Shown piece after piece: positions 5,272 through 33,405 of a DNA stretch of 40,682 nucleotides. Made by a program: the position numbers and the translations under genes. This stretch comes from Microcystaceae cyanobacterium (lineage in GTDB: Bacteria > Cyanobacteriota > Cyanobacteriia > Cyanobacteriales > Microcystaceae). A model generated the notes under the pieces. It saw only the letters and a program-made list of their open reading frames with translations, did no database searches and had not been told where the DNA came from. How positions within the stretch are numbered: the first letter of the stretch is position 1; each line of letters starts with the position of its first letter. The DNA is taken from positions 1-40,682 of the forward strand of contig JBGTGT010000107.1 of NCBI GenBank assembly GCA_041746575.1, in the 5' to 3' direction.

Positions 5272-5537
5272 TCACTCCACCGTCTCAATGCTGGGTGGTT
5301 TCCACGTCCCTTGACCAACAGCATACTCGTACATCACCACATCATTCATCAAAATGGGCAAGCCATAGATGAATCCTGCTTCGGCGATCGCTTTGGTTTC
5401 CTCAAGGGGGGGCATTTTGATATTCTCATTGGAATGGGTAATCGATTGCGCTACTACTGGGTGTATTCGATCATTAGGGTTGCGGCAATGGCAACAGAAA
5501 GCAGACCGATAGCCAATTGGGATTTCGGTAAGTCCAT
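5272..5537 (-). pseudogene. Internally deleted, frameshifted DUF1254/DUF1214 gene remnant
   Basis: Signal-like MDLPKSQLAIGLLSVAIAATLMI, frameshift near 5460-5470, then PVVAQ...ETKAIAEAGFIYGLPILMNDVVMYEYAV joined directly to GQGTWKPPSIETVE*. The tail matches the C-terminus of the 23998 remnant. Confidence 0.8.
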
Positions 5538-5625
5538 AGGGTTTTTATCTGAAAAGACATCAACTGAGAATTGTCGATGGTAGATTTCTGCGGTCTTTAA
5601 TCTAAAATCTTTGGTCAAAGGAAAA

Positions 5626-6105
5626 TTAACGACAACCGACAACAGAAGCAGTATAAGTTTTGCCTAACGATTCAATTCCATTGACAAACAAATTAACTTG
5701 ATAAGGTTCATCTTCAGGAACGGGTTGCGCTTCAATTTTGAGAGGTTTATCAGGCTGAAATCTTACCGCTTCATTGTTGAAAAATTCATCGGACGTTTGA
5801 TCGCTGTATTTGAGATACATTCTAATTTCGAAAGATCCTTCGTCATTGGAAGTCAGTGTCACAATATAACGACGAAAACTGACATCTCCCGGCACAGCCC
5901 AATCCGTATTCCAGTTATTTCGAGTGACATCAACGCCAACCATTCCTAAAGGACCCGCCGGAACAGTAGGAGGAGAAACGGTCTTCGTGACTGTATTTCC
6001 CTCTCCACCAACAACGGGAATAGGCGTACAGGTTTCGGCTTGAACGGGTAGATTTAAGCTCAAAAAAGCTGTCAAAAGAGATAAGTTAATAAAACGATAA
6101 AACAC
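5626..6105 (-). CDS. Exported hypothetical protein (beta-rich, Cys at both mature termini)
   Basis: GTG start; signal peptide ending VQA-E; ETC...GCR Cys pair; co-oriented in the gene run. Confidence 0.8.
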   Translation of the reverse strand: MFYRFINLSLLTAFLSLNLPVQAETCTPIPVVGGEGNTVTKTVSPPTVPAGPLGMVGVDVTRNNWNTDWAVPGDVSFRRYIVTLTSNDEGSFEIRMYLKYSDQTSDEFFNNEAVRFQPDKPLKIEAQPVPEDEPYQVNLFVNGIESLGKTYTASVVGCR

Positions 6106-6144
6106 AGTGTTTTCCTAATAGTTAATGATCGATAATTTTCCATT

Positions 6145-6516
6145 TTAAGGAAACTTAATTTGCACTTCCCCTTCAGGCGGAGGAGTGGATACGTTATCCC
6201 CATCCCCGACTGGAGAAGAGGGAACTTCCTGTACTTTTGGTGCGCGGGGATTGTTTTGTTCAATATTAAGTTCTTGCTCTAGTTTTTCTTCTTCTTGTTG
6301 TCTCCCTTGTTGAGGCGATTCATTCTCAAGGTTCTGCGTTTCTTGCTCCATTTCTTGATCCCCTTCATTAAAAAATTCTTCTGCATCCCCTCCTCGAGCT
6401 TGAGCAAAGACGGGAGAAAATAACTGAGTCATTAGGGTTAATCCGATAAGCGGTATTAAGAAGAAAAAGATTTTATCTATTAATCTTTTAGGTAGTTTAA
6501 GGGTTAGAATCATCAT
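6145..6516 (-). CDS. Small exported acidic Q/E-rich protein
   Basis: Signal peptide ending VFA-Q; low-complexity acidic mature part; similar to 11382..11717. Confidence 0.7.
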   Translation of the reverse strand: MMILTLKLPKRLIDKIFFFLIPLIGLTLMTQLFSPVFAQARGGDAEEFFNEGDQEMEQETQNLENESPQQGRQQEEEKLEQELNIEQNNPRAPKVQEVPSSPVGDGDNVSTPPPEGEVQIKFP

Positions 6517-6539: not shown

Positions 6540-7091
6540 TTAATAATTCTGATAAAAAGTAAGCCGTCCTACACCCATATCTAAACCCGTCGGATTCTCC
6601 CCTGCTGGAAAAGTGGTGACACTGAAAAGATAAACGCCGCTACTCGAAGGATTTTGCTTGGCATCAAGACGAATCGTAAAAGTCGTTCCGGGGGGAATCG
6701 GGGGATTAAAAACAATGGCAACAGCTTGAGTTTTAGAGTCTTGCGTGGTTGTAAAGGTTAAGGTTTGTTTAGGATTTCTTTGAGTCCCGATAAAAGCGTG
6801 AGTATTGTCTAAATTAAACTTAATCGTATCAACATTTTCTTGTTGTTGAATGGTTACTTTTCCCAAAGATTCAACTGAATTTGTCGGAAGATTAAACACG
6901 AAATAATAATGAGCGTTCGGCCAATTTGTCCAACTCTCAAGCGTTTCCGCACTAATTAACGTGGGGGGTTGTCCTGTAAAAAAGGTACTGTTTTCAGGGA
7001 GTTGAACCGTTTGTCCAAGGCAAATAGATGGAAATAAATTAACACTCCCAACCGCTAAGATTGCTAAAGAAAACCGACGTATTTTGATCAT
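6540..7091 (-). CDS. DUF2808 domain exported protein
   Basis: TFFTGQPPTL...YYF...LGKVTIQQ...FNPPIPPG...NPSSSGVYLFSVTTFPAGENP...GVGRLTFY. Confidence 0.88.
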   Translation of the reverse strand: MIKIRRFSLAILAVGSVNLFPSICLGQTVQLPENSTFFTGQPPTLISAETLESWTNWPNAHYYFVFNLPTNSVESLGKVTIQQQENVDTIKFNLDNTHAFIGTQRNPKQTLTFTTTQDSKTQAVAIVFNPPIPPGTTFTIRLDAKQNPSSSGVYLFSVTTFPAGENPTGLDMGVGRLTFYQNY

Positions 7092-7129: not shown

Positions 7130-7810
7130 TTAGCGAACTTTCATAATTTCAGGAACAAGAGAATTAACAATAATATTTGATAAACCTGTAATCATAAATT
7201 GAACTCCCATCGAGGCAACTAATAAACCCAAAATGCGAGTGACAATATTAAGTCCGACCTCTCCGACAACTTTTTGCAACCAGCGACCAGCCAGTAAAAT
7301 AACGAAATTTAAAGCACAAATGGCAAAAATTGTGACTACGAAGCCGAAAAATAAGGCCCCATCTTTTTTGTTCTCTGCTTCACTGGCATAGAGTATCACA
7401 TTCGCAATCACTCCCGGTCCCACTAACAACGGTATAGCAAGGGGAATAACAATTTTGCGATAGACCAACTGAGCGGCTCGAAAGTCACTGGTTTGGGCTT
7501 CAGAAGCTAAATTCTTAGCGGATTTACTAGAATCACCATTAACAATGCTAATACCGATGATTAGTAATAGAATACCGCCTGCAATGCGAAAGGAATCTAA
7601 AGAAATGCCAAAAAATTTAAGGAGGGATGAACCTGTAAAGAAAAATAACAACAGCAACATCAAAACGGTTAAGGATACAAATAAAGCTAACCATCGTTGA
7701 ACACTGCGCTTTTCTCCGGCAACATAACCAACGAAAATAGGCATCACGCCCAAAGAGTTTAAGAGGGCAAATAGACTGGCGGCAAAATTACTAATTAGAA
7801 GTTTATTCAT
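7130..7810 (-). CDS. MarC family integral membrane protein
   Basis: FGISLDSFRIAGGILL, IPLAIPLLVGPG and TRILGLLVASMGVQF motifs. Confidence 0.93.
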   Translation of the reverse strand: MNKLLISNFAASLFALLNSLGVMPIFVGYVAGEKRSVQRWLALFVSLTVLMLLLLFFFTGSSLLKFFGISLDSFRIAGGILLLIIGISIVNGDSSKSAKNLASEAQTSDFRAAQLVYRKIVIPLAIPLLVGPGVIANVILYASEAENKKDGALFFGFVVTIFAICALNFVILLAGRWLQKVVGEVGLNIVTRILGLLVASMGVQFMITGLSNIIVNSLVPEIMKVR

Positions 7811-7850: not shown

Positions 7851-8450
7851 TTAGAGTAAATTGCCGATCAATCCGAACGTGATCGCTATAATTGAAACCG
7901 AGAGAATATAAGAAAGAAGACCGTGAGTAGCAATAAGTTGACGCATAGCAGTCGTCGTGACGGTTGTGTCTGAGGTTTGATAGCAAGCTGCCATACAAAA
8001 TCCTTCATAAAGAAATTCTGTCCAATGGGGTTGGGAACAATCCGGAAAATTGAGTCCTTTGCCATCGAAGTAGTAACGGAGAGCATATTGCTCACTGTAG
8101 ATAAACTGTACCATCAACCAAGCACAGATAATGCCCAAAAAACCCAAAGCAAAATGAAAGGTAGCGTGTTCGGCAGAAACCAGATAAATAAGAAGTCCAT
8201 AACTACTCATTGTATAAAGAAAAGATTCAGCAAACGCTCTTTTGGGATTAGGACGATAGTGTTGTATGAGTTGCCATGGTACAAACTGTTGAATTTTGCG
8301 GAATAAGAACAAAATTCCCACCAATAAAGCACAGAGGAAAGCAACTACCAGACGGGTATTGAGGGGGATAGGCAGTATTAATATTCCGATTCCTACGATT
8401 GACTGGCATAACCAACGAATTTTCACGGATTTTTTTCTCCATTTCCCCAT
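7851..8450 (-). CDS. DUF1345 family membrane protein
   Basis: YALRYY...GLNFP...PHWTEFLY...YQTSDTTVTTTAMRQLIATHGLLSY. Confidence 0.85.
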   Translation of the reverse strand: MGKWRKKSVKIRWLCQSIVGIGILILPIPLNTRLVVAFLCALLVGILFLFRKIQQFVPWQLIQHYRPNPKRAFAESFLYTMSSYGLLIYLVSAEHATFHFALGFLGIICAWLMVQFIYSEQYALRYYFDGKGLNFPDCSQPHWTEFLYEGFCMAACYQTSDTTVTTTAMRQLIATHGLLSYILSVSIIAITFGLIGNLL

Positions 8451-8457
8451 CTTCTTT

Positions 8458-8973
8458 TTACTCAGTCAATCTAGAAGCCGGAACTTCAACCGAAAAATCG
8501 CCACATTGTAGAGCAAGTTTCGTAGGATTAGCTAAATCTGTGCCTCTGACTAATTGAGGGTCAGCCGGACGAATTTGCCCTGTTTCGGTATTTTCGCAGA
8601 TAATTGTGGTAATTTCAGGATTTTGATTGGGTGTAATAAATGCCCCACCAACATAGGCTTTCAATTCACCTTTCAGAGAAGATTGCGCCGGAATAACGTA
8701 GCTGTAAGCGGCTTCTGAGGTGGTACGAACGGCATAATCAAAAGTAGTAGGTAACGTAATCTCAAAATCTCGTTTAATATCTTCAATGGGAGCGCGAAAC
8801 TTGCCATTTTTTTGATAATAAGTCCGTTGTCCTTCGGTCATTTTAGCCACCACCTGCAAGGCAGTATTTTGATCTCGGTCAGATTGGTCTTGTGCTTGAG
8901 TCGTTAAACTGAATCCGACGATTCCAGTTCCTAATAAAAGAATAGCGATCGCTCTCTCAATAGGGTGTTTCAT
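8458..8973 (-). CDS. Type IV pilin-like G/H domain protein with an ordinary signal peptide
   Basis: MTEGQRTYYQKNGKF...YAV...LKAYVGGAF...TIICE...C pattern. N-terminus is Sec-like (AQA-Q), with no G-F-x-x-x-E prepilin site. Confidence 0.7.
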   Translation of the reverse strand: MKHPIERAIAILLLGTGIVGFSLTTQAQDQSDRDQNTALQVVAKMTEGQRTYYQKNGKFRAPIEDIKRDFEITLPTTFDYAVRTTSEAAYSYVIPAQSSLKGELKAYVGGAFITPNQNPEITTIICENTETGQIRPADPQLVRGTDLANPTKLALQCGDFSVEVPASRLTE

Positions 8974-9017: not shown

Positions 9018-9689
9018 CTAAGCAGGAGTACTATACAAAGAGACTAATCTAGCAACAATTACGGTTAAATAAACGGCTCCTGCCATTGCTTCAAAGTTTG
9101 CCAAAACCATCACCCATTTTCCTGTTGGAATAATACCACCGTAACCAACAGTTGTCAAGGTAATTAAACTAAAATACATTGCTAAATTCCAAGGCTTCAA
9201 TTCATATTCTCTTAAATCACTAATTTGAAAAGAATGGGGACTAAGTTGCCAAATGATGAAATAGATAAATGACCATATAATACCAATAAAAAGGTAGGAA
9301 ATAATGGCTGAAACAATTGTATTATTGGTTACTTTTTGTCGGCGTGCCAATATTTTAATGGTGATCAGCCACTCGTATCCGAAAACAAGAACTTTAATAA
9401 AGACCGCAGTAACCAAGAAAAAACGATTCAAAAGAGAAATCCACTTAAAGTGGAACATAACATCAGACAGAAAAGCAATTAGAATTAAAATAATTAAAAC
9501 TCTTAATTTTCTAGTGGAGTAAACATAGTCGTGATTGTAAAAATGTCTTAAAGACATTAATAGTATTGTGACTAGAAAAATTACATTTACAAAAAATAAT
9601 TCTATTGTATTTTCACCAACAATAGCGAGAGTGACACCAATCACGGTAAGTGTCAAAATCACATAAGGATTTGTCCATCTTTTGAGCAT
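9018..9689 (-). CDS. Potassium channel family protein (Ion_trans_2)
   Basis: Canonical filter YFSLITLTTVGYG; EAMAGAVYLTVIVARLV inner helix. Confidence 0.9.
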   Translation of the reverse strand: MLKRWTNPYVILTLTVIGVTLAIVGENTIELFFVNVIFLVTILLMSLRHFYNHDYVYSTRKLRVLIILILIAFLSDVMFHFKWISLLNRFFLVTAVFIKVLVFGYEWLITIKILARRQKVTNNTIVSAIISYLFIGIIWSFIYFIIWQLSPHSFQISDLREYELKPWNLAMYFSLITLTTVGYGGIIPTGKWVMVLANFEAMAGAVYLTVIVARLVSLYSTPA

Positions 9690-9720: not shown

Positions 9721-11337
9721 TTAAGGAGTGGTTTTGATTGCTTCATTTAATTGTTCCTGTGTTAAGGATTTTATTAAATGAAGAGGCAGGGGATCTTTGC
9801 CTATTTTCTGGACAGCCGCATCCGTTAAATAAGGCTCGAATTCCTGTTGTTGATTTAAGTAAAGGTTAAAGAAAGCTAAACTAAGACTTTTGAGATAAGC
9901 ATAAGCTAAATCTCTTCCTTCTCCGACAATAAACTCAGGTAAATCACCACCCCCCGCTAAGAAAGATAAATGAGTACCATTTTTAACTAAAACCAAATAC
10001 TTATCCTCTTTATCAACATCAGCAAAAGGAGAAATTTGTTCTGGCAAAGGAGGAGCGAAAATATCCGCGCTTCCCGCAATGAACATCATGGGAACAGAAA
10101 TTTTATTAATACCTTGATTGCCAAAAGCAGGGTTGGTGACGGGATTAATAGCAATAACCGCTTTAACTCTGGAGTCTTGAAGATCTGCCAAAGGAGAAGC
10201 CTCTGTTATTCCTTGACATTGCCAAAGTAAGGCAGGATTTAAGTTAATTTGATTGGGATTATTCAACTTAGCACATTCTTTTAATAAATCATCCCATTGA
10301 ATATTAGCCCCACCGGTTGCAGTTGCTGTATATCCGCCCAATGACTGTCCCAAAATGCCCACATTATTGATGTCTAATTTACCTTGCCAATTAGCCTCAG
10401 ATTTCATTTTTTGTTCTAGGGTATCTAAAACTAGACTGACATCTTTAGGCTGATCCATCCAAGCATTAGGAGTGGGAAAGGTATCTAAACCTTGTAAGGC
10501 ATCTTTCATTCTTTGGGCATCACTTTCAGGAAAGTCAATTCCCGCTGTGGCAAAGCCATAAGAGGCCAAATGTTGGGCGACATACTGCAATGACTGAAAA
10601 TCAGAATTTAAGCCAGGCGTAATCACAATTAATGGAGCCGGTTTAGTCAAATTTTGGGGAAGATAAACAAAGACAGTTAGAGGCTCATCATTCGGACGAG
10701 GAATCATCAATGTTTCTGACGTCCAAGTTGTTTTACCTGCTTGCGATAAGTCAGATAAAGAAATTGAGGGAGTCGTTAATACTTCGGTAGCAGATTGACT
10801 ATCTAACCAAGCAAAAATGCGTTCGGTTGCTTGATATAATTGATCGGCTTCATGAATGGTATTGCGAAGGGTTTCTAAATTAAGAGCTAAGGTCGGACTA
10901 TTATAATTTTTGATAACATCGATGATTTTAAATCCATTAGAATTTGCCGATGCTAACAGTATCGCACCTTGTAAAAAAGATTGACTTTGCTCGGGTGGAC
11001 TATTAATCGCTAGACTCAGTTGCCTAACCAGTTCTTTACCAAAATTAGTATTAAAAAACTCAAACGCTTCTACTTCACTTAAAGGAAAAGATTTATTGAG
11101 TAAAGAACGGAATTTTGCCAATTCTTCGGGACTGAAGTGTTTAGCATAAAAAGCAAAATCGGAGGTGATTTTACCTTCTTGAGCAAACATAGCTAAACTA
11201 TCCACAGAAATATCAAATGTTCCTAGCGGTGCTATCGAAAATGTGATTTTTTCTGCTGCTAATGTGGGAAAAGATGGCAACAGGGAAAAGAGTCCTACTC
11301 CTACAATAAGCCCTAATTTTTGACATAAATTTAGCAT
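9721..11337 (-). CDS. DUF1400 alpha/beta hydrolase
   Basis: AAEKI...ISVDSL..FA.EG N-terminal domain; nucleophile GQSLGG; GTHLSF catalytic His; signal peptide. Confidence 0.9.
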   Translation of the reverse strand: MLNLCQKLGLIVGVGLFSLLPSFPTLAAEKITFSIAPLGTFDISVDSLAMFAQEGKITSDFAFYAKHFSPEELAKFRSLLNKSFPLSEVEAFEFFNTNFGKELVRQLSLAINSPPEQSQSFLQGAILLASANSNGFKIIDVIKNYNSPTLALNLETLRNTIHEADQLYQATERIFAWLDSQSATEVLTTPSISLSDLSQAGKTTWTSETLMIPRPNDEPLTVFVYLPQNLTKPAPLIVITPGLNSDFQSLQYVAQHLASYGFATAGIDFPESDAQRMKDALQGLDTFPTPNAWMDQPKDVSLVLDTLEQKMKSEANWQGKLDINNVGILGQSLGGYTATATGGANIQWDDLLKECAKLNNPNQINLNPALLWQCQGITEASPLADLQDSRVKAVIAINPVTNPAFGNQGINKISVPMMFIAGSADIFAPPLPEQISPFADVDKEDKYLVLVKNGTHLSFLAGGGDLPEFIVGEGRDLAYAYLKSLSLAFFNLYLNQQQEFEPYLTDAAVQKIGKDPLPLHLIKSLTQEQLNEAIKTTP

Positions 11338-11381: not shown

Positions 11382-11717
11382 TTAAAACTGCATTTCTGCT
11401 TCTTCATCAGCCGGCTGATAAGGCAAGTTATCATCTAGTCCAAGGGATTCGCCAGGCCCAGGTGCATCTTCTATATTGGGGGAAACATGGTCTATTTCAT
11501 CATTGATCCCCCCTTGTTCCAAGTTTCTTTCATTTTGTCTATTAATGTTGAGTTGTTGCTCAAGTTGTTGCTCTCTTTGGTCAAGCGTTTGTTCTTCCTG
11601 TTTTTCTTCTTGTTCGTCGAGTGCTTGAGCCTGGGTTGGCGAAGACTGTCCTGTTAAAACGAGGATTGAGAAGATTAAAGGGGTTAGGGCGATAAAATAA
11701 TCAGGGCTTCTTTTCAT
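11382..11717 (-). CDS. Small exported acidic Q/E-rich protein
   Basis: Signal peptide ending TQA-Q; EQQLEQQLNI motif shared with 6145..6516. Confidence 0.7.
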   Translation of the reverse strand: MKRSPDYFIALTPLIFSILVLTGQSSPTQAQALDEQEEKQEEQTLDQREQQLEQQLNINRQNERNLEQGGINDEIDHVSPNIEDAPGPGESLGLDDNLPYQPADEEAEMQF

Positions 11718-11778: not shown

Positions 11779-12834
11779 TTAGGGTTTAAATGAAAAGATT
11801 TGCTTCCAATCGTTTTTCATACTAATAATAAGCCAATTCTGCCGCTTCGCTTCGTCGTAGAGTGCCTGAGTGAAGGTGCCAATCCGAGTATCAGGTAGCC
11901 CTGTCGCGGGTCCGTAGGCATATTCCCGTTCCGCATCATCGTGTAATACGAGCATCGACAGCCTCATGCCGTCACCCGCTTTGGTGTATTCCAGCATCTG
12001 GCGATCGCCAGTAGAGTTACCGAAGGCAATATAGGGACGACGACCAATCATCAGGTGGATATTCTCTGGTTTGCCCGCATTGTTGTCGTTAAGCAAAAGT
12101 TTAGGCTCTTTGGTCAGGAACGGCTGACCATCCTTGTCGTAGCCGTACTTAGTCTCCCCAGCACTGCCGACGACTTGCTCAAGGGAGATGCCATAGACAC
12201 GCTCGGAATAGAGGCGCACGAAATCCTGTCCTCCACCAGTAACTATATAGGTTTTGTAGCCCTTGACTCTCAGATATTCCAGCACTTCCTGCATCGGCAA
12301 ATAGGTGAGTTCGGTGTAGGTTTTCTGCCAACGGGGATGTTTAGCCGTTGCGAGCCACTTTTGGGCTTCGGTGTTGTATTCATCCACTGACATACCCGTG
12401 AGGGTAGCGGCGAGAATCTTCTCTAAATCTGGTAGCGAGAGTTGGGCGATCGCTTCACGATTGCCTGACAATACCGTCTTGAATGGCTCGACGTTGGCAA
12501 GCTCCGGTTTCGCCTTAACGACTGCTGGCACTCGCTCTAGAGCATAGATCAATTGGGTGTACAGAGGATGTTCAACCCAGAGTGTCCCATCTTGATCGAA
12601 GGTGGCAATGCGATCTTCGGGTTTGACGTACTTTGGGCTAGATTTGTCGGTCGTCACTTGCACAAACTCAATAATTGCGCTTTTCGCTGCTCCATCATTC
12701 CAAGAGGAAAGAGGCGCGGTTGATTGCGATGACTGGGCAGTTAATTTCCCGAAGTTGAGGTAACCACCCAGAAATATAACCAGCAAAAGCGTTGACAGGG
12801 CAAGCAAAAGGGTCTTGAGCGAGAACTTCTTCAT
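11779..12834 (-). CDS. Exported HAD-family hydrolase (nonspecific acid phosphatase type)
   Basis: HAD motif I FDQDGTLW, VTGGG, GK and FGNSTGD; LSSWNDG N-terminus; signal peptide. Confidence 0.92.
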   Translation of the reverse strand: MKKFSLKTLLLALSTLLLVIFLGGYLNFGKLTAQSSQSTAPLSSWNDGAAKSAIIEFVQVTTDKSSPKYVKPEDRIATFDQDGTLWVEHPLYTQLIYALERVPAVVKAKPELANVEPFKTVLSGNREAIAQLSLPDLEKILAATLTGMSVDEYNTEAQKWLATAKHPRWQKTYTELTYLPMQEVLEYLRVKGYKTYIVTGGGQDFVRLYSERVYGISLEQVVGSAGETKYGYDKDGQPFLTKEPKLLLNDNNAGKPENIHLMIGRRPYIAFGNSTGDRQMLEYTKAGDGMRLSMLVLHDDAEREYAYGPATGLPDTRIGTFTQALYDEAKRQNWLIISMKNDWKQIFSFKP

Positions 12835-14736: not shown

Positions 14737-15591
14737 TCAAGTTTGAGGGGTTAACTTGCGCTTAATCCAGAGGGAGTAGAAAACACCGAGTACGGCTCCT
14801 ATCATCAAATAAGCGATCAAGGTGGGTATGACCTGCTGTTGTACGTCATTTAAAACGGCAATAAACAACGCTAAACCGATATTACGAGCAATACAGGAAA
14901 TCGCTAAGATAGAACGCTTATCCTCATCGGGACCGCCTAATGCGTGTCCGATCACCAGAGAGACAATCACCATAAGCGTAATTACAATTAATGGCAATCC
15001 CCAAACTTTGAATAACAAAGGAATCCCGATGATACAAGCGATAACGACCAACACCAAAAAGAGAACATTCGCTATAAGATTTAAAGGTTGAGCCAACTTT
15101 TCAGCAAATTGAGTCCCGTATTTTTGGAGCAGAAGACCGAGGGTGACGGGTAAAAACTGCACCATCGTCACCTGTTTGGCCACTTCTAACAAGGTAATTT
15201 TGTCTGAAAGACCTTCAAATTGGCTGGCGAAAATCCCTAAAGTTAGCGGCGTAAGGAAGACAGCTAGTAAGGCGAGGGTTAGCTGAAGGCTGGCTGAGTA
15301 GCGAAATCTGGCTCCTGCCATTTGCGATCGCTTTGTGGATAGAGGCGCACCGGGAGAAGCGGCTAAGAAGGCTAATCCCGTTATCACTCCAGAGGGTAAG
15401 TCAAACAGTTTGAGCAGGAGAATAACCGCTAAAGGCACTAGCACTACAACGGCTAGAAGCGCACGGAAGAGCAACGCGGGTTGTTGCCAAAGGGAACGCA
15501 TTTTCTCAAAAGAGAGATTGATCCCGATAGACAACATCAAAACAAAAATCGTAACTTTGACCAGTATGATCAGCAAAGGATGGTGTGCCAT
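14737..15591 (-). CDS. Bile acid:sodium symporter (BASS) family transporter
   Basis: MLSIG, LAASPGAP, GHALGGP and ARNIGLAL motifs; about 9 TM segments. Confidence 0.88.
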   Translation of the reverse strand: MAHHPLLIILVKVTIFVLMLSIGINLSFEKMRSLWQQPALLFRALLAVVVLVPLAVILLLKLFDLPSGVITGLAFLAASPGAPLSTKRSQMAGARFRYSASLQLTLALLAVFLTPLTLGIFASQFEGLSDKITLLEVAKQVTMVQFLPVTLGLLLQKYGTQFAEKLAQPLNLIANVLFLVLVVIACIIGIPLLFKVWGLPLIVITLMVIVSLVIGHALGGPDEDKRSILAISCIARNIGLALFIAVLNDVQQQVIPTLIAYLMIGAVLGVFYSLWIKRKLTPQT

Positions 15592-19008: not shown

Positions 19009-19045
19009 CGGTAAATAGATAATAAATCTCAATAATAATGACAAT

Positions 19046-23997: not shown

Positions 23998-24528
23998 TTA
24001 CTTGAAGACCTCGATGCTGTGGGGTTTCCATGTTCCTTCACCCACTGGCAGAATCGAAGGAGGTGTCTCCTTTGTCCAATACATCGCTAAATAGATAGAA
24101 CCATTAGGCAGGTAGCCAGTTAGATTCTTTGTCTGCACTAGGTGCCTCGTGTTGGATGTAGATCGTCAGCGATCCATCAGGGTTTTTCTTCAGATTGGGT
24201 AGCATTGGCGAATTAATCAGGTAACAATTGATCGGATTTTTGATCAACAATTGCGTCTTGCCATCGTACATCGTCACCGACCAAAAGGCATTTACAGGAG
24301 GGTACTGTCCAGCAGGAAAGGTCAGCGTGTATTTATGCTTACCGCCGTCAAGGATCTCACCGTTCGCAAGTGTCTTTGTAACAGGATAGGTTGCTTCCTC
24401 CACCTCATTGCCGTAGATTTCAGCTTGTGCGCCGATAGGGTTTGGGGAAGTCCCAGTAAACTAAGGCTTATTAAAGCTGTCAAGGAACGTTTTCCAAAAT
24501 AAATGGGCATATAACTCATATTCAACAT
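23998..24528 (-). pseudogene. Internally deleted, frameshifted DUF1254/DUF1214 remnant (leader plus DUF1214 half)
   Basis: Leader ...KRSLTALISLSLLGLPQTLS; frameshift to AQAEIYGNEVEEATYP...PPVNAFWSVTMYD...NWLPA; second frameshift near 24108 to PNGSIYLAMYWTKETPPSILPVGEGTWKPHSIEVFK*. Confidence 0.85.
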
Positions 24529-24541
24529 ATTTTTTGACAAT

Positions 24542-24922
24542 TTAACGATTTTCCTCGATCAAAATCCGAACCTGTGTCGTTAAGTCTTGGACGTAATCGG
24601 GATCGCTGGCGACTCCATATTTATCGCTGAGCAAACAGCCCTGAATGGCGGCTTGAACAATTTTTGCCGACGTAATCTTGCCAAATCGGTATTGCTCTTC
24701 AAAAACCTGATAGCCCGGAATTCCCTGTTTTTCAAAGTATCCTTGATAAGCCATCATCGCTAAATTGGCAGGCGCAAGATAAGGAGGAACTTCCCCCACA
24801 CAAGTAGCAGGCGATGGAACAGAGGAAGATTGGGCTTTAGCTAATATTGGCGCGAGGATAAAGATAAATACCATAAAAGAAATTGAAATTGGCGAAAAAA
24901 GCGATTTAAGGTATTTCAACAT
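24542..24922 (-). CDS. Exported cyanobacterial hypothetical protein
   Basis: Signal peptide ending AKA-Q; P.NLA.MAYQGYF..QGIPGY motif. Confidence 0.78.
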   Translation of the reverse strand: MLKYLKSLFSPISISFMVFIFILAPILAKAQSSSVPSPATCVGEVPPYLAPANLAMMAYQGYFEKQGIPGYQVFEEQYRFGKITSAKIVQAAIQGCLLSDKYGVASDPDYVQDLTTQVRILIEENR

Positions 24923-24931: not shown

Positions 24932-25447
24932 TTACGACGAAATTTTACGTTTAAGTTTTAATTGAGGGGAATCAAAGAAAAATCGAGCAAGCGTTCCCTT
25001 GCCGAGATAATTATCGATTTCCTTAAAAATATTGTGAAGCAAGAAGACGACTGAGACACAAAGCGTAACCGCAAGAAAATGAGAGAAGTGTTCTGAATTT
25101 AAAAAACTGGCGATCGCTGGAACAATCGCCTTGGTTGTCCGATAAGCATGAAAGAGATGTTCGATGAAGCCAAGGGTTAAAACGGCAAGGGTATAGACAA
25201 AGGTTTTGTACAAAATGCCGATATAACGGGGAGATTGCTCAAAACGATTCATCCACGGTGTCATATCCATAATCATTACCGCTTTTGCCGCGACTATTGC
25301 CCCAATAATCGCTTTTGAGAGAACATAGCTATCAATCGAATACTCTTTTAAAAAAAGCTTCATAATTAACAGAATGTAACCAAATCCAATAAGGAAAAAT
25401 AGGGCTAAAGACGCTAGCTTTTTGATTTCGCGTTGCAGTGCTGTCAT
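24932..25447 (-). CDS. Hypothetical 4-TM membrane protein
   Basis: Four hydrophobic segments; GAIVAAKAV and YKT..YT motifs; tight spacing with neighbours. Confidence 0.8.
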   Translation of the reverse strand: MTALQREIKKLASLALFFLIGFGYILLIMKLFLKEYSIDSYVLSKAIIGAIVAAKAVMIMDMTPWMNRFEQSPRYIGILYKTFVYTLAVLTLGFIEHLFHAYRTTKAIVPAIASFLNSEHFSHFLAVTLCVSVVFLLHNIFKEIDNYLGKGTLARFFFDSPQLKLKRKISS

Positions 25448-25452: not shown

Positions 25453-25935
25453 TTAATTAACGGTGTAACCCCGTCCCTCCATACAGGCTGTCCAAGCTTG
25501 ATAATATTGTTGCAATTGTTGATGCTCTTGAGCATTGGCTTGAGTCGCCGCTTGGTCGGCGGTTCGTTCTTCTTCCCTGCGTCGCATTAGTCCTGACAAC
25601 GCCCCTACACCTGCCCCAATAGCCGCACCCTCTCCGACATTGCCCCCAATCGCACCTCCAACGACGCCTAAGAGAGAGCCTCGTGCCGCCCCTCGTACTA
25701 ACCCTCCTTGGTGAGAAGACTGGGCAACGGTTGGGGTGGAAATCTGAGCAGGATCAACGCCTGTTTGCTGTTTTGCCCAAGAATAACAAGCATAATGGTC
25801 TTGTTGTTGCTGTTCTGAACTTTGCCCCTTGCTAGGATAGGCAAAAGGTTCAGCTGACTGCGCTAACGCAAAATCGGGGTAAAAAATGGCGCATCCTAGA
25901 AGGCTTAGACTGATAGCTTTGATCATACGTTTCAT
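25453..25935 (-). CDS. Exported glycine-zipper protein
   Basis: YPSKGQSSEQQQQDHYACYSWA, GAARGSLLGVVGGAIGG.GEGAAIGAGVG and ACMEGRGYTV. Start is ATG 25935 or GTG 25950. Confidence 0.88.
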   Translation of the reverse strand: MKRMIKAISLSLLGCAIFYPDFALAQSAEPFAYPSKGQSSEQQQQDHYACYSWAKQQTGVDPAQISTPTVAQSSHQGGLVRGAARGSLLGVVGGAIGGNVGEGAAIGAGVGALSGLMRRREEERTADQAATQANAQEHQQLQQYYQAWTACMEGRGYTVN

Positions 25936-26107
25936 AAAACACGCTCTCACCGTAACAATATCTAGCGGGACAAAAGAAATTGACTAGAAGTTCCCCTTAC
26001 GTTTGCGGAGGAACTAAACCACACTCGAATAACTTGGGAGCTTTGTAAAGATTTCTTAACATGACTTAAGAATTTTGACCGATAAAATTGTCATTGAACG
26101 GTCTTCT

Positions 26108-26152
26108 AGCCTAAATACTATTGATGGTATTTTCTTGCCATTTTGTGCCAAT
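26108..26152 (-). promoter_or_regulatory. Putative AraC-activated promoter for run A: 20-bp box plus -10 TAGGCT
   Basis: TCTTGCCATTTTGTGCCAAT at 26133-26152, identical to 33386-33405; 19-nt spacer; TAGGCT on the minus strand at 26113-26108. Confidence 0.75.
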
Positions 26153-27241: not shown

Positions 27242-28918
27242 TTATTGGCGACCAAATTCGCCATATTCCTTTTTAAATTCTTCGATCGCTTTTTTGACTT
27301 TATCAGAGGATGCTCCACTAATAAAATCGAGTTTAAAGCTCTCGTTTTGACTGAGATATTCAGCATAAGAAGATCGCAGATAAGGAAAATAATTCTCATT
27401 ATTCTGGATATGAACCTCAAAAAAGGCAACCGATATTGCGTCAACATAACTCGCAATTAAAGTCTGACTGGGTAAAGCTAAATGGACGGTCGCATCAAGC
27501 GTTTCTTTAATACCGCCATCAAGCTTAGTAAAATTAACATGAGCTTGCCCTTCTACTAATACCCAGTATTTGGCAGGCGTATTTAACCAAGTAAAAGAAG
27601 CAGTTTGTTCTAAAGCAGGAGGCGCGACGGGATCGTCGCTTCCGGAAGCCAAAAGAGTCGGAATTTTAATATCACTTAATCCTTTCTGTCCGAAAATAAA
27701 ACGATTCACCGGATTAGCGGCAAAAACTGCTTTTACGCGTTCATCACGCAATTGATAGATTTGTCGGGGCAATTCTAAGGCGCGACATTCTAATAATAAA
27801 GAGACATCTAATCCTCCATAAAGGCGATCGCAAACTTCTTGCAATTCATCAAAATCAAGGGTTGCCCCGGCAATGGCTAAAGTAGTATAACCGCCAAAAG
27901 AATGTCCCCCCATTCCTACATTTTCGAGATCAAGCTTTCCCTGAAATTCTGATTGATTGCGTCGCTCTAATTCGTCAATCACAAAGCTAATATCTTGGGG
28001 ACGATTAATAAATTCATTTACATCAAAGATATCTTTATGATAGCCTTCAAACATTTCTTCTAAGTAAATGATATCACTGCCAATATGTTGCGGTGCAACC
28101 ACTAAGTAGCCATAAGAAGCAAGGTGATTTAAACTATCTGAATAGTCTTCAGGACGAGAGGATAAGCCATGAGAAAAAACTAAAACGGGAATGTGTTCAC
28201 TGGACATTTTTTGAGGAAGATAAACATCCATATAAAAGCGACGATTGCGACTTTTATCGGTTAATTGCCAAACTTGTTTTTTGACTTCATATTGACCCGA
28301 TTGGCGAATATTAGGTAAGTTAGCATAGTTAACGGCAGGGTTCGTTTGCGCTTCTTCTGCTGTCCAAATTCGCATTTTTTCGACAACGGTTTTGGTTGCT
28401 AAGGCGACCTTTTCTGTTTCTTTTACTAGCCCCTCTGCTAATTCCCCTTGAATTTGAATATTAGTGGGAAACTTTTTGAGAACATTTAGTAGGGTTAATC
28501 CTTCAGGATCAAAAGCCGATTGAATGATCGCACCTCGCATGGCAATTCCTCCGTTACTTCCCCCTTGAATGGTCACGCCTTTCCCTAAACGCACTAGAAT
28601 TGCTTCTCCCATCGTACTATTAAAAAAGCGAGAAACTAAGACAGGACTAATTTCAAATTTTTGGGTTAAGGCTTTCCTAAACTCAGCTCGTTTTTCGGGA
28701 CTGACACGATCTAAATAAAAGCCCAAATCTTTATTAATAGTTCCTTCTTTGGCGAAACTTTCTAAGGATTCAACTTTAACAGAAAATATTAAAGAGTCAT
28801 AAGTCAAAAAGAGCTTTTCTGCCGCTTTAACAGGAATTGAGGTTAAGAACATTGAGACAATTCCTAAGAAAAATAAGGCAATTTTAGCATCAGTTTTTTT
28901 GAATTTCATTGGAAACAT
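27242..28918 (-). CDS. DUF1400 alpha/beta hydrolase
   Basis: AAEKL...VKVESLESFAKEG; SHGL; nucleophile GHSFGG; signal peptide. Confidence 0.9.
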   Translation of the reverse strand: MFPMKFKKTDAKIALFFLGIVSMFLTSIPVKAAEKLFLTYDSLIFSVKVESLESFAKEGTINKDLGFYLDRVSPEKRAEFRKALTQKFEISPVLVSRFFNSTMGEAILVRLGKGVTIQGGSNGGIAMRGAIIQSAFDPEGLTLLNVLKKFPTNIQIQGELAEGLVKETEKVALATKTVVEKMRIWTAEEAQTNPAVNYANLPNIRQSGQYEVKKQVWQLTDKSRNRRFYMDVYLPQKMSSEHIPVLVFSHGLSSRPEDYSDSLNHLASYGYLVVAPQHIGSDIIYLEEMFEGYHKDIFDVNEFINRPQDISFVIDELERRNQSEFQGKLDLENVGMGGHSFGGYTTLAIAGATLDFDELQEVCDRLYGGLDVSLLLECRALELPRQIYQLRDERVKAVFAANPVNRFIFGQKGLSDIKIPTLLASGSDDPVAPPALEQTASFTWLNTPAKYWVLVEGQAHVNFTKLDGGIKETLDATVHLALPSQTLIASYVDAISVAFFEVHIQNNENYFPYLRSSYAEYLSQNESFKLDFISGASSDKVKKAIEEFKKEYGEFGRQ

Positions 28919-28994: not shown

Positions 28995-30305
28995 TCACCC
29001 ACTGCGAATATGAATATCTTGCTGGGGAAAGGGAATCTCGATTTTCTCCTCAGCAAATCGTTCTAAAATTAAGCAATTCAGCTCACTAATCACTCGTTTC
29101 CGCATATTAATATTTTCTAACCAGAATTTTAACTCAAAATTTAAGCTTGAGTCACCAAAATTCAGAAAAAAAGCGAGAGGAGGGGGGTATTTCAGCACTT
29201 TGGAATGACGATGAGCAATTTCTAAGAGTAAATTCATCACCTGTTTAGCATGAGAATCATAACCCACTCCTACAACAATTGAACAATTAACTAAATTATT
29301 GCTCCCTGTGTAAGTGGTTACGTCCTCGGTAAAAAAGGTTTGATTTGGAATGATTTTTTCTGAATTATCTGCTAACATTCGCACCGTGGTTGCTCGAATA
29401 CCGAGTTGCTTGACTTCACAATTTTGTCCATCGAGGCTAATAATATCTCCCGGCTTTAAAACCTTTTCAAATAATAGTAAAATACCACTGACAAAATTAC
29501 TAACGACTTGCTGTAAGCCAAAACCAATTCCAACTGATAGACCGCCTGTAATTGCGGCTAGTGCTGTTCCATTTACCCCGACATATCCTAAAATTAATAC
29601 AACCCCTAATGCAATTAAAAAATAACGAATTAGTAAGGCTGTTGCCTGAATTGCTCCTGCTTCTGAGGGCGTTTTTGCTTGAATAATAGTCAGTATCAAT
29701 GATTCTACTAAAATGACAATAACTATCCAAAAATAAAGTCCAGCGATCAGCCAAAAAATTGCGCTTAGTGTAATGGGACTATTGAATAATTTAAACGGAG
29801 ATGATTGAGCAATTTCTTCTAAGTTATTATAAAGATTAATAATTGTTTTGAAAACAAAAAGAACAAAAATAGGTGCAAATAAACGGTAATGATATTCTTT
29901 AACTGTTTTAATAGAAAACGTACCATATAAGATAGCCAATAAGAAGCAATAAACGGAATAAACACCTATCAGTTGGATAGCAACTCGTAGAAGCCCCCTT
30001 GTCCAATCTTGACTATAAAAAAGTAGCTGAGCGCAATTCAATAAAATTAAACTGATTAAAGGAAAACTGAGACGCTGTATTAATATCGCAAAATATTGAA
30101 GCGGCGAAAATCGCTGATCTTCCCAACTAAATTGTGTCCATGCTGGTAACCTTTTTTGTAACCAACGCCAAAACCATTTTGACAATAACCCACTAATCAC
30201 TAAACAAAAAAAGATGGTTAAGATTTGATTTTGAACATCGGCTCGGTTTAAAAAAAGCAGTTGTTTAGTAATAATGTCCGATAAATTAGGCAAATGACGT
30301 TCCAT
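28995..30305 (-). CDS. MscS family mechanosensitive channel with extra N-terminal TM helices
   Basis: GGLSVGIGFGLQQVVSNFVSGILLLFE, IRAT, IIPN, FGDSSLNFEL and IEIPFPQQDIH motifs. Confidence 0.95.
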   Translation of the reverse strand: MERHLPNLSDIITKQLLFLNRADVQNQILTIFFCLVISGLLSKWFWRWLQKRLPAWTQFSWEDQRFSPLQYFAILIQRLSFPLISLILLNCAQLLFYSQDWTRGLLRVAIQLIGVYSVYCFLLAILYGTFSIKTVKEYHYRLFAPIFVLFVFKTIINLYNNLEEIAQSSPFKLFNSPITLSAIFWLIAGLYFWIVIVILVESLILTIIQAKTPSEAGAIQATALLIRYFLIALGVVLILGYVGVNGTALAAITGGLSVGIGFGLQQVVSNFVSGILLLFEKVLKPGDIISLDGQNCEVKQLGIRATTVRMLADNSEKIIPNQTFFTEDVTTYTGSNNLVNCSIVVGVGYDSHAKQVMNLLLEIAHRHSKVLKYPPPLAFFLNFGDSSLNFELKFWLENINMRKRVISELNCLILERFAEEKIEIPFPQQDIHIRSG

Positions 30306-30326: not shown

Positions 30327-31589
30327 TTATTGCTGATTCACCGATTGATTAATCAAAAGGGTTAACTTTTTACCTGCTTCTACTGAACTAATTTCTCCAG
30401 ATATTGCTTGCTGATACAAAAACTCTGCTTTTTCAAAGACAGTCGAAAGTCGCTCTAAGTCATCAAGAGAAATAGCAATAGCAGTCCGAGATTGTTTAAG
30501 TAACACTGATTGAATCGGTAATAATTTTTCATCTAAAATAATATTACGATTACTGGGAATAAAGCTCTGGGTGTTGACAATTCCTTGCAGTTGTTGCTCA
30601 GTATTAGTAACAAATTTAGTCAAATTTAATCCTAAATGGTATTCATTGAGGCCGGCACTATGATTGAATGCCACGGCTCTCGTGTAAAGCAAGGGGGCTG
30701 CTTTTCCTTGTGCTTCTTGGGGTAATAAGGCAACTCTCAGATTATCTTTAAGGATATTTTTTAAGTCAATAATTTCACCCGAATTACATACATAATAAGT
30801 TAAATTACCTTGAGCGAAAGCATCGTGTAAAAGACTACGATTACGATTAAGAACAAAATTAGGTTGTATCGACGCATTTTTAAGCCAATCAAGCCATTTT
30901 CCCCACTCTTCAAGCTGAGGTTGTATTGCACCTTGAGCATTCCAAAATGAACCCCCAAAAATCCCCATTCCCCAAAAGGTATCTTCAAAAGAGGATACCA
31001 TCCCCACAGAATAGCCTTTAAGCGATCGCTCAATCAAGCCTTCTAAACGGGTAGGAGGTTGACTGAGGAAAGGATCTTGACTCGCTTGCAATTTTGCTTG
31101 GTTATAACACAAAACCCGAATTTGTGACCCTAATGGGATACCATAGATTTTTCCGTGGTAGCGAACTTGGTTTAAAGTAGGGGGTAGGTAAGTCGATAAA
31201 TCAATAACTTTTTCGTCAATAGACTGAAGATGTCCCCGCTTAGCTAATTCGGGAATATGTTTAGAAAAAATAATAATAGCACTAGCCCCTAATCCACTTT
31301 GAGATTCCTGAATAAAGCGTAAAGGCAGTTCATCTTGAGGAATATATTCACTCATAAGATTAACGTCAGGATTCAGTTGTTTAAATTCTTGAAATCCAGT
31401 GGCAATAAGTTGACTTAAATCTCCTTGTAAAGAGTGCCAAAGGAGCAAATTTCCCTGTTGTTTTTCGGGAAGAGGATAAGGTTGATCAATCAGGCAAGCA
31501 TTTAGAATAATAGACAACAAAATCACTAAGAGTAAAGAAGATAGCCATTTAACTAACTTTTTATTGTGAAACGCTAAATTCTTATTCAT
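30327..31589 (-). CDS. Extracellular solute-binding lipoprotein (sugar-type SBP)
   Basis: Lipobox LNAC; LLLWHS; GKIYGIPLG...VLCYN motifs. Confidence 0.85.
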   Translation of the reverse strand: MNKNLAFHNKKLVKWLSSLLLVILLSIILNACLIDQPYPLPEKQQGNLLLWHSLQGDLSQLIATGFQEFKQLNPDVNLMSEYIPQDELPLRFIQESQSGLGASAIIIFSKHIPELAKRGHLQSIDEKVIDLSTYLPPTLNQVRYHGKIYGIPLGSQIRVLCYNQAKLQASQDPFLSQPPTRLEGLIERSLKGYSVGMVSSFEDTFWGMGIFGGSFWNAQGAIQPQLEEWGKWLDWLKNASIQPNFVLNRNRSLLHDAFAQGNLTYYVCNSGEIIDLKNILKDNLRVALLPQEAQGKAAPLLYTRAVAFNHSAGLNEYHLGLNLTKFVTNTEQQLQGIVNTQSFIPSNRNIILDEKLLPIQSVLLKQSRTAIAISLDDLERLSTVFEKAEFLYQQAISGEISSVEAGKKLTLLINQSVNQQ

Positions 31590-31596
31590 AGATTAA

Positions 31597-33327
31597 TTAA
31601 AAATGAAAGGTTGCTGATAGATAGGGGCCGTTTAAATTTTCTGTGAAACCGAAAGCATTATTTCCCGTACCAATCTGATAATCAATACTATAGAAATGGT
31701 AAGCAAATTGTAGCGAAAAATCTCGACGCACCCACCAATCTACCCCAAAGAAAACATTCCAACTGAAATCCGTTTCTCCCGCTAATCCAAATCCAGAAAC
31801 ATCTCCTCTTACCCAGAAAATAATCGGATCTGAAATTTGTAAGCCTAACTTTCCACCTAACATCGGTTCAAACCAAGTTCGTCCACCCTCCAATGTTTCT
31901 TGAAATGTTCCTTGAAAACTTGCTAAACTACTGCTTAAAGAAAGATTAATGGTTTCTTGAATCGTCACACTAATATCATTTAAACGCACGCCGGCAATGG
32001 GTTGAAACCAAACAAGAGGATAAGGACGATTTGAAGGCGTTTCTGGTAATTCGGTTAAGGGAAGCTCTCCAATGTGATAACTTAATGCAAAGTCATAAAT
32101 GCCTTGGTTAAATTGTAAATCCGTACTTAAATTGGCATCAAACATTTGAGGATCTCGATTGTCAGCAAAATTTTCGATTTCATTAATTGCTTGAATATCT
32201 CGATCTACAATGGCTTTAGCATTCTCGACATCGGTTTCTAATTGTTGTAATTCTGGACTGTCTTCAATCGCTCGTAATTCACTAATTTGTTGGCTTGTTT
32301 GCTCTAGCAAATTTCGGGTTTTAGCCAACTGCTGTTGAAACGAATCTAAGCTTTCTAACTTCATAATCGCCGTTTCTATTCTTTCATTAAAATTCTCTTG
32401 TTCGCTTTGATTATTAAGCGTAATCGCTTGTTGCAATTCTACTTCATTTAAGTTTAAAAATTCTCTCTGTTGTAAGTCAAAATCAACGGCTTCTAATTGA
32501 GATTCTCTTTGGTCAACTTCTGCTTGAAAATTCTGTAAGTCTTCCTCTAATTCTCTCAACGTTTGAGCATCTTGAGCGACAGTTTCTTGGAAGGTTTGAA
32601 CCGTTTGTCTAAGATTTTGAACGGCTTGACTCTCCCGTAGTTCTTCGACGTTTTCTAATCTTTCTACATCTTGACTGAGAAAATGAGCTAGATTTTGCGC
32701 TTGAGTATTAACATCTTTACTGAGCAAATAATTTAAGGCATTAATCGTATTGGGCATTCTTTCTACGGCTTTTTGAAAATCAACAATTCCTGTTAAACTT
32801 GCGTAATAGCCATCCACAATAAAACCCCAGCGTCCTTTCCATCCTTCAAAACGCCCACTTGCCGCCACACGCAAGTGTTGCAAGGTTTCTCCTAAACTGA
32901 GATGATAATCAACAGTACGCCCTCTAACCGTCGATGAACCGTAGATACTCACAGGAACGGTAACATAGGGTTGAAATTTAAAATGCCAACGATTGTCTTC
33001 TTCAATGGAGGGAATTTCTATCGGAGGAAGAGGAGAATCGTCTTCTTTAATAATGGGTGTTTCTGACGGGGTTTGGACAAATTCTAAAGAACTTTTAGCC
33101 CCCATTAAATCATGAGCGCAGTGACTGGTAGGGGCAGGAAGATGAAGAGCGTTTTCAGGAGATTGAAGGGTATGGGTTAACGGTGAAAAAGAAGGACAAG
33201 AAACGGATGAAGCCGAATTGAGATCGGGAGAGGCAGTCGCAGAAATAATACGACCAAAACTCAAATTGCAACCTCCTGCTATCGCTAGGAATAGAATAAG
33301 TGGCTGTTGTGAGAATCTTTTGCGCAT
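31597..33327 (-). CDS. Outer-membrane beta-barrel protein with a ~200-aa coiled-coil insertion
   Basis: Amphipathic strands WHFKFQPY...WGFIVDGYY and WFEPMLGG...GDVSGFG...GPYLSATFHF with terminal Phe; Q/E/L heptad region at residues ~192-392. Confidence 0.78.
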   Translation of the reverse strand: MRKRFSQQPLILFLAIAGGCNLSFGRIISATASPDLNSASSVSCPSFSPLTHTLQSPENALHLPAPTSHCAHDLMGAKSSLEFVQTPSETPIIKEDDSPLPPIEIPSIEEDNRWHFKFQPYVTVPVSIYGSSTVRGRTVDYHLSLGETLQHLRVAASGRFEGWKGRWGFIVDGYYASLTGIVDFQKAVERMPNTINALNYLLSKDVNTQAQNLAHFLSQDVERLENVEELRESQAVQNLRQTVQTFQETVAQDAQTLRELEEDLQNFQAEVDQRESQLEAVDFDLQQREFLNLNEVELQQAITLNNQSEQENFNERIETAIMKLESLDSFQQQLAKTRNLLEQTSQQISELRAIEDSPELQQLETDVENAKAIVDRDIQAINEIENFADNRDPQMFDANLSTDLQFNQGIYDFALSYHIGELPLTELPETPSNRPYPLVWFQPIAGVRLNDISVTIQETINLSLSSSLASFQGTFQETLEGGRTWFEPMLGGKLGLQISDPIIFWVRGDVSGFGLAGETDFSWNVFFGVDWWVRRDFSLQFAYHFYSIDYQIGTGNNAFGFTENLNGPYLSATFHF

Positions 33328-33360
33328 TCACCCATGACTCCTAACGATAAGACAAAGGAT

Positions 33361-33405
33361 ATCATAAAGCCAACAATTCAAATTGTCTTGCCATTTTGTG
33401 CCAAT
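33361..33405 (-). promoter_or_regulatory. Putative AraC-activated promoter for run B: 20-bp box plus -10 TATGAT
   Basis: TCTTGCCATTTTGTGCCAAT at 33386-33405; 19-nt spacer; TATGAT on the minus strand at 33366-33361. Confidence 0.75.

Follow-up and report, generated by a model that had tools for sequence, protein, structure and literature searches.

A Candidate AraC-Controlled Regulon of Sulfatases and Cell-Envelope Proteins in a Microcystaceae Cyanobacterium

Gene Content of the Locus

The window analyzed here, that is, the whole stretch of 40,682 nucleotides (nt), is contig C107 (JBGTGT010000107.1) of the 4.2-Mb genome (4,216,386 bases) of a Microcystaceae cyanobacterium, and the system in question is a gene cluster that surrounds a single gene for an AraC-type regulator. 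The cluster contains 27 intact genes, comprising 22 minus-strand open reading frames (ORFs; 5626–25950), the plus-strand araC gene, and four further minus-strand ORFs (27242–33327). It is bounded by trkA (3526–5223) on one side and by an aminotransferase gene (33534–34709) on the other. A first-pass annotation of this sequence had described about 27 genes arranged in two minus-strand runs around the araC gene, with an identical box upstream of each run. The ORF layout and a 20-mer at both heads bear this out, and two DUF1254/1214 remnants are present in addition to the 27 intact genes. Pfam recovers every family that the annotation had named except the outer-membrane barrel, which has no Pfam match, yet structure prediction gives a barrel. 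Its list omitted Uma2, DUF2808, and Pilin_GH, as well as six proteins without a convincing Pfam family. Of four DUF1254/1214 genes counted there, two as decayed, both intact copies and one clear remnant hold up, while the second remnant is statistically weak. The statement that nearly all products are exported or membrane proteins applies to 23/27 intact products, in which a hydropathy heuristic finds an N-terminal hydrophobic or transmembrane (TM) segment; with the same heuristic, no signal or TM segment is seen in sulfatase A (SulfA), DUF1254a, Uma2, and AraC.

Inside the left run, sulfA is flanked by intergenic gaps of 190 and 221 nt, and because of these gaps a single 20-kb transcript of this run is kept as a candidate. 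Scans of the region for promoters (47, against a shuffle mean of 34.1, standard deviation (sd) 6.5) and for terminators (26, against 21.5, sd 5.0) reveal no clear internal operon boundary, and there is no Rfam match within window positions 5000–34000. The gap between the BASS transporter gene and sulfA holds a 17-pair AT-rich inverted repeat (14596–14633), and a second hairpin occurs in the gap between sulfA and the HAD phosphatase gene (about 12946–13006); either could be a processing or stabilizing site.

The Box and Its Promoter Geometry

The 20-mer ATTGGCACAAAATGGCAAGA stands at the head of both runs on the minus strand. Across the 4,216,386 bases of the genome there are two exact copies and, when ≤3 mismatches are allowed, three. 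The third, with two mismatches, is located at C31:8437, 160 nt before the gene for a 789-amino acid (aa) sulfatase (C31:8437–10967, near the contig end), so that all three sites stand at the heads of genes of the sulfatase/DUF1254 kit and the candidate regulon reaches outside the window. In relatives the site takes the form TGGCRY-N3-ATGGYAAG, occurs beside the araC gene and at operon heads, and is usually present in a single copy per promoter. A matrix built only from 12 sites of relatives ranks the two window sites first and second in this genome. A further match to this matrix, at C37:29665, was taken as chance since it lies inside a coding region.

A TAnnnT hexamer follows the box by 18–20 nt in 19/34 cyanobacterial pattern matches, a set that includes some chance sites in ORFs; in 2000 shuffles the mean was 3.7 and the maximum 11. 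Transcription in the window would be expected to begin ∼7 nt beyond the two hexamers, near 26101 and 33354. The 3′ end of the box would therefore occupy the −35 position. Class II AraC activators have a binding site that overlaps the −35 position, and the layout seen here, with the site over the −35 position at a fixed spacing from a −10-like hexamer, is of this type. The two conserved blocks of the box are one helical turn apart, which would fit the pair of helix-turn-helix (HTH) motifs in an AraC protein. The sites of GliR, AraC, and MarA are likewise described as overlapping the −35 element (PMC8151288). The box was also considered as a sigma-54 element. In the sigma-54 consensus GG and GC are 10 nt apart, and this reading was rejected because the spacing in the box is 9 nt.

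The Regulator and the Box across Genomes

The regulator combines an N-terminal PF12625 (Arabinose_bd) domain with a C-terminal double HTH (PF12833), both above the Pfam cut-off. The closest solved relatives of its family are VirS and 5CHH; VirS (8RCX) is the top PDB match of the family profile and aligns over the full length (E 7.5e-36). The best named NCBIfam models are QhpR (154.3 bits, cut-off 250) and GliR (77.5 bits, cut-off 570), and with both scores far below the cut-offs AraC belongs to neither equivalog. Close homologues (E ≤ 1e-30) are found in 13/401 genomes of the phylum, this one included and all in one order, the sample holding many small, distant genomes and kin that are not independent. 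A Leptolyngbya plasmid also carries a close homologue.

The exact box pattern occurs in 10/13 AraC-positive genomes versus 26/388 others, a comparison with some circularity, since these same loci supplied the pattern. The placement of the matches also differs. In the AraC-positive genomes 10/12 sites examined (of 17) are intergenic, whereas in AraC-negative genomes 19/21 matches examined (of 28) fall within ORFs, and neither of the two intergenic matches is followed by a −10 element. These data bear on the idea that another factor binds the box, or that AraC represses rather than activates. The pairing of box and AraC is a prediction from sequence, and box 1 lies ∼80 nt upstream of the araC start, making autorepression possible. 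However, the contrast in placement and the position of the box in place of a −35 element make this idea very improbable.

The association extends beyond cyanobacteria. At least 80 loci, mostly from outside this phylum, were gathered by AraC similarity and scored with the cyanobacterial matrix, after two plasmid loci were added and two loci without upstream DNA were left out. Among the matches listed, the box is upstream on the opposite strand in 14/22 close versus 6/58 distant AraC homologues, and in one more close homologue it is upstream on the same strand. The box precedes members of this AraC clade in six phyla, the non-cyanobacterial carriers including Pseudomonadota, Planctomycetota, Acidobacteriota, Nitrospirota, and Myxococcota. 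On an Agrobacterium plasmid a perfect box separates AraC from a DUF1254 gene. On a quick tree of 94 AraC proteins (seven short rows left out), the box label is clustered (13 changes, compared with 28.1 on average after shuffling), and one split has the box in 31/42 rows on one side and in 3/52 on the other. Finally, metagenome contigs, many of them short, were scanned for the box and −10 element without reference to protein; among the matches listed, 32/78 distinct contigs carry an AraC-profile match, 26 of the 32 at ≥100 bits, both as raw counts. A site shared by both runs is thus conserved with the regulator across genomes. This comparative evidence supports the earlier proposal of an AraC-controlled regulon well, and we regard it as very probable whichever function proves right.

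Several related loci were seen along the way. At L238 (3731–4945), the box and AraC stand before a methylamine-dehydrogenase heavy-chain-like gene, echoing the control of amine dehydrogenase by QhpR. In Pseudomonas (L088, L091, L104, L105, L112), more distant AraC relatives are beside AtsA-like sulfatases, and upstream of several of them stands another kind of string, patterned as TTGGCGC...GGTCAAC. At L035/L036 (G017:C42, 17663–25271), an AraC paralogue is close to an apparent sulfate ABC transporter operon, recognized from N-terminal sequences; no box was found at this locus.

The Gene Set in Relatives

Homologues of the cluster genes (≥35% identity) were sought within ∼20 kb of AraC in 17 other cyanobacterial replicons. 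Of the 26 non-AraC genes, 21 have such a homologue in one or more of the 17, and five flanking genes tested have one in 0/17. The commonest neighbors are sulfatases of the B/C types and the 171-aa membrane protein (10/17 each), followed by the 159-aa protein, the barrel, and DUF1400b (9/17 each) and Pilin_GH (8/17). The formylglycine-generating enzyme (FGE), a maturase, is near AraC in 5/17, and in two of these its gene comes directly behind the box; a permease of SLC13 type is near AraC in 4/17. In genome G335 both window runs form one unit, in which a lone box is followed by one series of genes that starts with FGE, includes sulfatase B, and ends with the barrel, solute-binding protein (SBP), MscS, and DUF1400 genes. 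In two genomes (G225 and G017), kit genes remote from the regulator are likewise preceded by a box, and DUF1254 is found in 10/13 AraC-positive versus 19/388 other genomes. In other taxa the genes after the box are often hydrolases, porins, and transporters (sulfatases, amidohydrolases, PAP2, TauD, OprB/OprD/FadL).

Such recurrence has to be set against the composition of the region, which is a mosaic of blocks with passengers and decay. AraC and its box could be a mobile expression cassette behind which unrelated cassettes have gathered, the 28 kb being a decaying mosaic with no one purpose whose distal genes may escape co-transcription. This would account for the GC content, which differs by block (38.3%, 46.4%, 37.2%), for the two remnants and the Uma2 passenger, for the gene order, which is shuffled in every kin locus, and for the AraC units found on plasmids beside transposases. 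It would also suit sulfA, which at the DNA level is 86% identical to a gene of G005, a genome in which no AraC of this kind was found, and 82% identical to one of G271. Moreover, the sulfatase/DUF1254 kit occurs without AraC or box in picocyanobacteria-sized genomes, and 4/4 plasmid loci of sulfatase A relatives lack both. In view of the recurrence near AraC of the cluster genes and not of their flanks, the enrichment of DUF1254 in AraC-positive genomes, and the boxes kept at distant kit genes, we consider this account quite improbable.

The Encoded Proteins

The three box-linked sulfatases keep their catalytic motifs, CSPTR and CAPTR being canonical and the CTAGR of SulfA a variant. The DD, GKxH, and DN motifs are also present, giving the signature of formylglycine-dependent (S1) sulfatases. 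The nearest solved relative of SulfA is 7AJ0 (PsFucS1, S1_13; E 1e-53), and those of sulfatase B are 7ALL and Pseudomonas aeruginosa AtsA (1HDH, E 3e-48); the labels S1_13 and S1_4 are drawn from such nearest-PDB matches alone. A maturase is available in the genome itself, where the best FGE-family match is on contig C84, outside the window. Two further sulfatases were noted, one with a degenerate box-like string upstream (C90:7782–10181) and one a SulfA paralogue (73% identity; C55:69278–70769) that appears frameshifted near its start.

The 159-aa protein is predicted to be a jelly-roll (pLDDT 82; best Z 9.7), a generic fold from which no function could be assigned. The barrel is predicted to be of OpcA/OmpT size (Z 18.3, root-mean-square deviation 3.3, 200 aligned), and its ∼200-residue helical insertion is absent from 10/17 aligned homologues. 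Among homologues the insertion ranges from absent to several hundred residues, and by strand counting it would face outward; the ESM Atlas returned only hypothetical clusters for this protein. The SBP gene, which has no ABC permease, directly precedes the MscS gene, possibly indicating a ligand-linked channel. The order barrel-SBP-MscS-DUF1400 is kept in G335 and G271 (L143, L145), and a search of 8000 long candidates for an SBP-MscS fusion gave none, a negative that carries little weight. The K+ channel has the filter TVGYGG, not TVGYGD, as do 1/3 homologues. Paralogy of the 123-aa and 111-aa proteins was considered and was not detectable. Outside the cluster (2293–3324), a dockerin/EF-hand-domain ORF and a 208-aa ORF, 42 nt apart, resemble one split gene.

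Table 1. Features of the AraC-centered cluster in the window
Feature	Position	Strand	Remarks
Box 1, predicted AraC site (ATTGGCACAAAATGGCAAGA)	26133..26152	-	araC/Gly-zipper divergent gap; points into long left run
Predicted -10 element TAGGCT	26108..26113	-	19 nt after box 1
Box 2, same sequence as box 1	33386..33405	-	heads barrel-SBP-MscS-DUF1400 run
Predicted -10 element TATGAT	33361..33366	-	19 nt after box 2
AraC regulator, 335 aa	26234..27241	+	ATG 26234, stop 27241; PF12625 N-terminal and HTH_18; VirS/QhpR/GliR type
Exported Gly-zipper protein	25453..25950	-	first gene after box 1
171-aa membrane protein	24932..25447	-	no Pfam match; near AraC in 10/17 kin
126-aa exported protein	24542..24922	-	no family; none found near AraC in kin
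Decayed DUF1254/1214 gene	24010..24540	-	clear, E 4e-37; frameshifted DUF1214 fragment
DUF1254/DUF1214 protein b	22322..23950	-	likely exported
Sulfatase B, 858 aa	19666..22242	-	N-terminal hydrophobic segment; CSPTR motif
Uma2 nuclease-family gene	19046..19582	-	likely passenger; in 0/17 kin neighborhoods
DUF2092 periplasmic protein	18208..19062	-	Pfam
Exported Gly-rich repeat protein	17488..18174	-	51-nt repeats; usually adjoins DUF2092
DUF202 membrane protein	17008..17445	-	Pfam
DUF1254/DUF1214 protein a	15610..16947	-	no evident signal peptide; VPA0106 (3U07) is a relative
BASS (SBF) family transporter	14737..15591	-	Pfam
Sulfatase A, 496 aa	13025..14515	-	no signal peptide; CTAGR motif
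Exported HAD phosphatase-like protein	11779..12834	-	DxDGT motif intact
111-aa exported acidic protein	11382..11717	-	no family
DUF1400 alpha/beta hydrolase a	9721..11337	-	GxSxG intact
K+-channel-like protein (Ion_trans_2)	9018..9689	-	TVGYGG filter
Exported Pilin_GH-domain protein	8458..8973	-	near AraC in 8/17 kin
DUF1345 membrane protein	7851..8450	-	Pfam
MarC/NAAT family membrane protein	7130..7810	-	Pfam
Exported DUF2808 protein	6540..7091	-	Pfam
123-aa exported acidic protein	6145..6516	-	no convincing family
159-aa exported protein	5626..6105	-	predicted jelly-roll (CBM/GOLD-like); near AraC in 9/17 kin
DUF1254/1214 remnant	5272..5410 (about 5278-5410)	-	weak, tblastn E 0.08-0.9; only both ends survive, middle missing
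Predicted 10-stranded outer-membrane barrel, 576 aa	31597..33327	-	helical insertion of ∼200 aa; first gene after box 2
Solute-binding protein (SBP_bac_8)	30327..31589	-	no ABC permease beside SBP gene
MscS-family channel	28995..30305	-	Pfam
DUF1400 alpha/beta hydrolase b	27242..28918	-	GxSxG intact; near AraC in 9/17 kin

Proposed Function

We tentatively propose, with a probability of about 0.45, that AraC is a ligand-responsive activator of class II type and that it controls a kit with which organic esters, foremost those of sulfate, would be captured and hydrolyzed. AraC would sense a small organic compound and, with its two HTH motifs on the TGGCRY and ATGGYAAG blocks, one helical turn apart and overlapping the −35 position, would recruit RNA polymerase. 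In this way it would switch on both runs in the window and the third sulfatase elsewhere in the genome. The exported sulfatase B, the HAD phosphatase, and the DUF1400 esterases may then cut substrates outside the cytoplasm, and the DUF1254/1214 proteins, the jelly-roll protein, and the SBP may bind them. Import of substrates to the sulfatases of the cytoplasm would fall to the BASS transporter or, in some kin, to a permease of SLC13 type, and the channels and small membrane proteins would have an accessory role. The first-pass annotation had offered either a capture and hydrolysis pathway or an ion/pH envelope module. Judged by sequence and by analogy, ester capture appears to us the more likely of the two, given that sulfatases, FGE, BASS/SLC13 permeases, porins, and further hydrolases recur behind the box, together with what is described for characterized relatives.

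A number of results weigh against this assignment. The GC blocks, the likely Uma2 passenger, and the two remnants speak against a single tidy pathway, as do the kits and plasmid loci that lack AraC and box, described above. In 20 DUF1254 neighborhoods examined at a distance from the regulator no AraC was found, and just one of them, that of the AraC-positive G225, has a clear box at its head. Three of the 13 AraC-positive genomes have no exact box pattern, support for the split on the quick tree is weak (72), and the matrix trained on relatives misses the C31 site. No box was seen at the C84 FGE gene, no gene of sulfate assimilation turned up behind a box, and by its predicted size the barrel would not be a typical solute porin. 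The genes that follow the box can also be of other kinds. In G009, an AraC paralogue accompanied by a variant of the box precedes a run of PFL-like glycyl-radical enzyme, PFK, and G6PD genes; behind the box at L058 are K+ channel, AI-2E, HlyD, DUF2955, and MscS-like genes; and elsewhere PqiA, OmpA, or EAL genes follow it. The G009 run (L038, G009:C72, 206–18818) was also seen to hold Pilin_GH, CMD, the activase of the glycyl-radical enzyme, two MGH1-like hydrolases, a ROK kinase, and an aquaporin.

The last of these runs lead to an alternative in which the regulator and box are the same and the output is a general envelope or stress program (acid, low oxygen, surface growth). The sulfatases would be mere members of it, and, as with VirS, pH or a membrane lipid would be what AraC senses. 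Such a program would be in keeping with the abundance in the window of genes for ion and membrane proteins (K+ channel, MscS, MarC, DUF202, DUF1345), with the L058 run, and with the fermentation-type run of G009. On the Agrobacterium plasmid, moreover, an arginine deiminase operon is ∼7 kb from the AraC-box-DUF1254 unit, with toxin–antitoxin and insertion-sequence genes between. However, the most recurrent targets are sulfatases, FGE, and other hydrolases; the window K+ channel is near AraC in 0/17 kin and MscS in 3/17; and the regulator, present in 13/401 genomes, is rarer than a core stress regulator would be. Amino-acid decarboxylase acid-resistance islands pair a decarboxylase with an antiporter, and no such pair is present in 5272–33405. 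VirS, the top PDB match, is described as acid-pH sensitive (PMC9044949), which counts for this alternative and against ester capture. On balance, we find the general envelope or stress program somewhat unlikely.

The ester-capture proposal can be extended to the other phyla. The AraC clade and a box of 17 bases may constitute a portable switch, present in at least six phyla, that senses a shared environmental cue and launches a large program of envelope remodeling and ester scavenging. The cue might be, for example, a sulfated or lipophilic molecule from neighbors, and we consider this joint reading, cue included, unlikely. If it is true, cyanobacteria would have a dedicated organosulfate-sensing system, and there would be a single genetic handle on DUF1254/1214, DUF2092, DUF1400, and the barrel with the 200-residue helical insertion. 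Even without the extension, one regulator and one box with mapped promoter positions would allow about ten families of unknown function to be switched together. Culturable strains carry the AraC-box unit, for instance on a plasmid of Synechocystis sp. B12 and in Bosea spp., and testing the regulon would reveal whether some cyanobacteria actively scavenge organic sulfate esters.

Comparison with Known Systems

We searched the literature with subscription journals and bioRxiv supplements outside the scope, and within it found no work joining DUF1254 and sulfatase, none of six exact box strings, and no description of this AraC clade, box, or cluster. In PMC6710368 and PMC11840546, a DUF1254/DUF1214-type gene is listed as affected by NnrR or LexA. 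The PCC 6714 transcriptome supplement (PMC5386190, file 3) has no AraC row and one unrelated "sulfatase" row, and the word "sulfatase" is absent from the main text and two supplementary files of PMC4060947 (file 1 lay outside the search). AraC-controlled catabolic and envelope regulons are already known (VirS, GliR, SphR, SlfR); what is new here is the regulator-box pair with its promoter positions.

Among these systems, VirS/mymA of Mycobacterium tuberculosis contributes, with VirS (8RCX), the nearest relative of the regulator family that has been solved at full length. Its target genes differ from those here, and the acid and lipid response is that of VirS. VirS is described as an AraC-type regulator of an envelope-related operon (PMC9044949). 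The best named models for AraC, although below cut-off, are those of P. aeruginosa GliR (PA3027) and Paracoccus QhpR. By analogy, GliR and SphR, the latter also from P. aeruginosa and taken by us to be a PF12625 member, would point to activators of lipid-handling operons. SphR is reported to be ligand-activated and to bind sphingosine (PMC3900636), and GliR to be divergent from its targets, with a motif, YYGGCGHTDTYSGMC, that overlaps the −35 element (PMC8151288). Unlike those of GliR, SphR, and QhpR, the site here is TGGCRY-N3-ATGRYAAG, usually in single copy, and the candidate regulon is far larger.

Sulfatase systems offer a second set of comparisons. In the ats loci of Pseudomonas and Klebsiella, which scavenge sulfate esters, sulfatase genes go with uptake by ABC/TonB systems and with control of the CysB/LysR type. 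AtsA is a relative of sulfatase B, whereas the present cluster is AraC-linked and has no ABC permease, TonB receptor, or CysB/LysR-type gene, and in these features it differs from the ats type. SulfAtlas lists AtsA as S1_4 (PMC5066984). SulfA has its best solved relative in PsFucS1 (7AJ0, S1_13), both lacking the Pro of CxPxR, and PsFucS1 is reported to act on fucoidan oligosaccharides (PMC8484680); SulfA, in contrast, has no signal peptide, and the cluster has no glycoside hydrolase genes. Finally, slfRCHSL of Psychrobacter plasmid pP62BP1, as described in PMC3346939, resembles the present locus in that an AraC of PF12625 type is encoded divergently from an operon predicted to serve organic sulfates. 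It differs in comprising five genes, with an alkylsulfatase and lipid-oxidation enzymes, in its proposed repeat TTGA-N6-AGGACA, and, as far as that description goes, in having no DUF1254/DUF2092 set.

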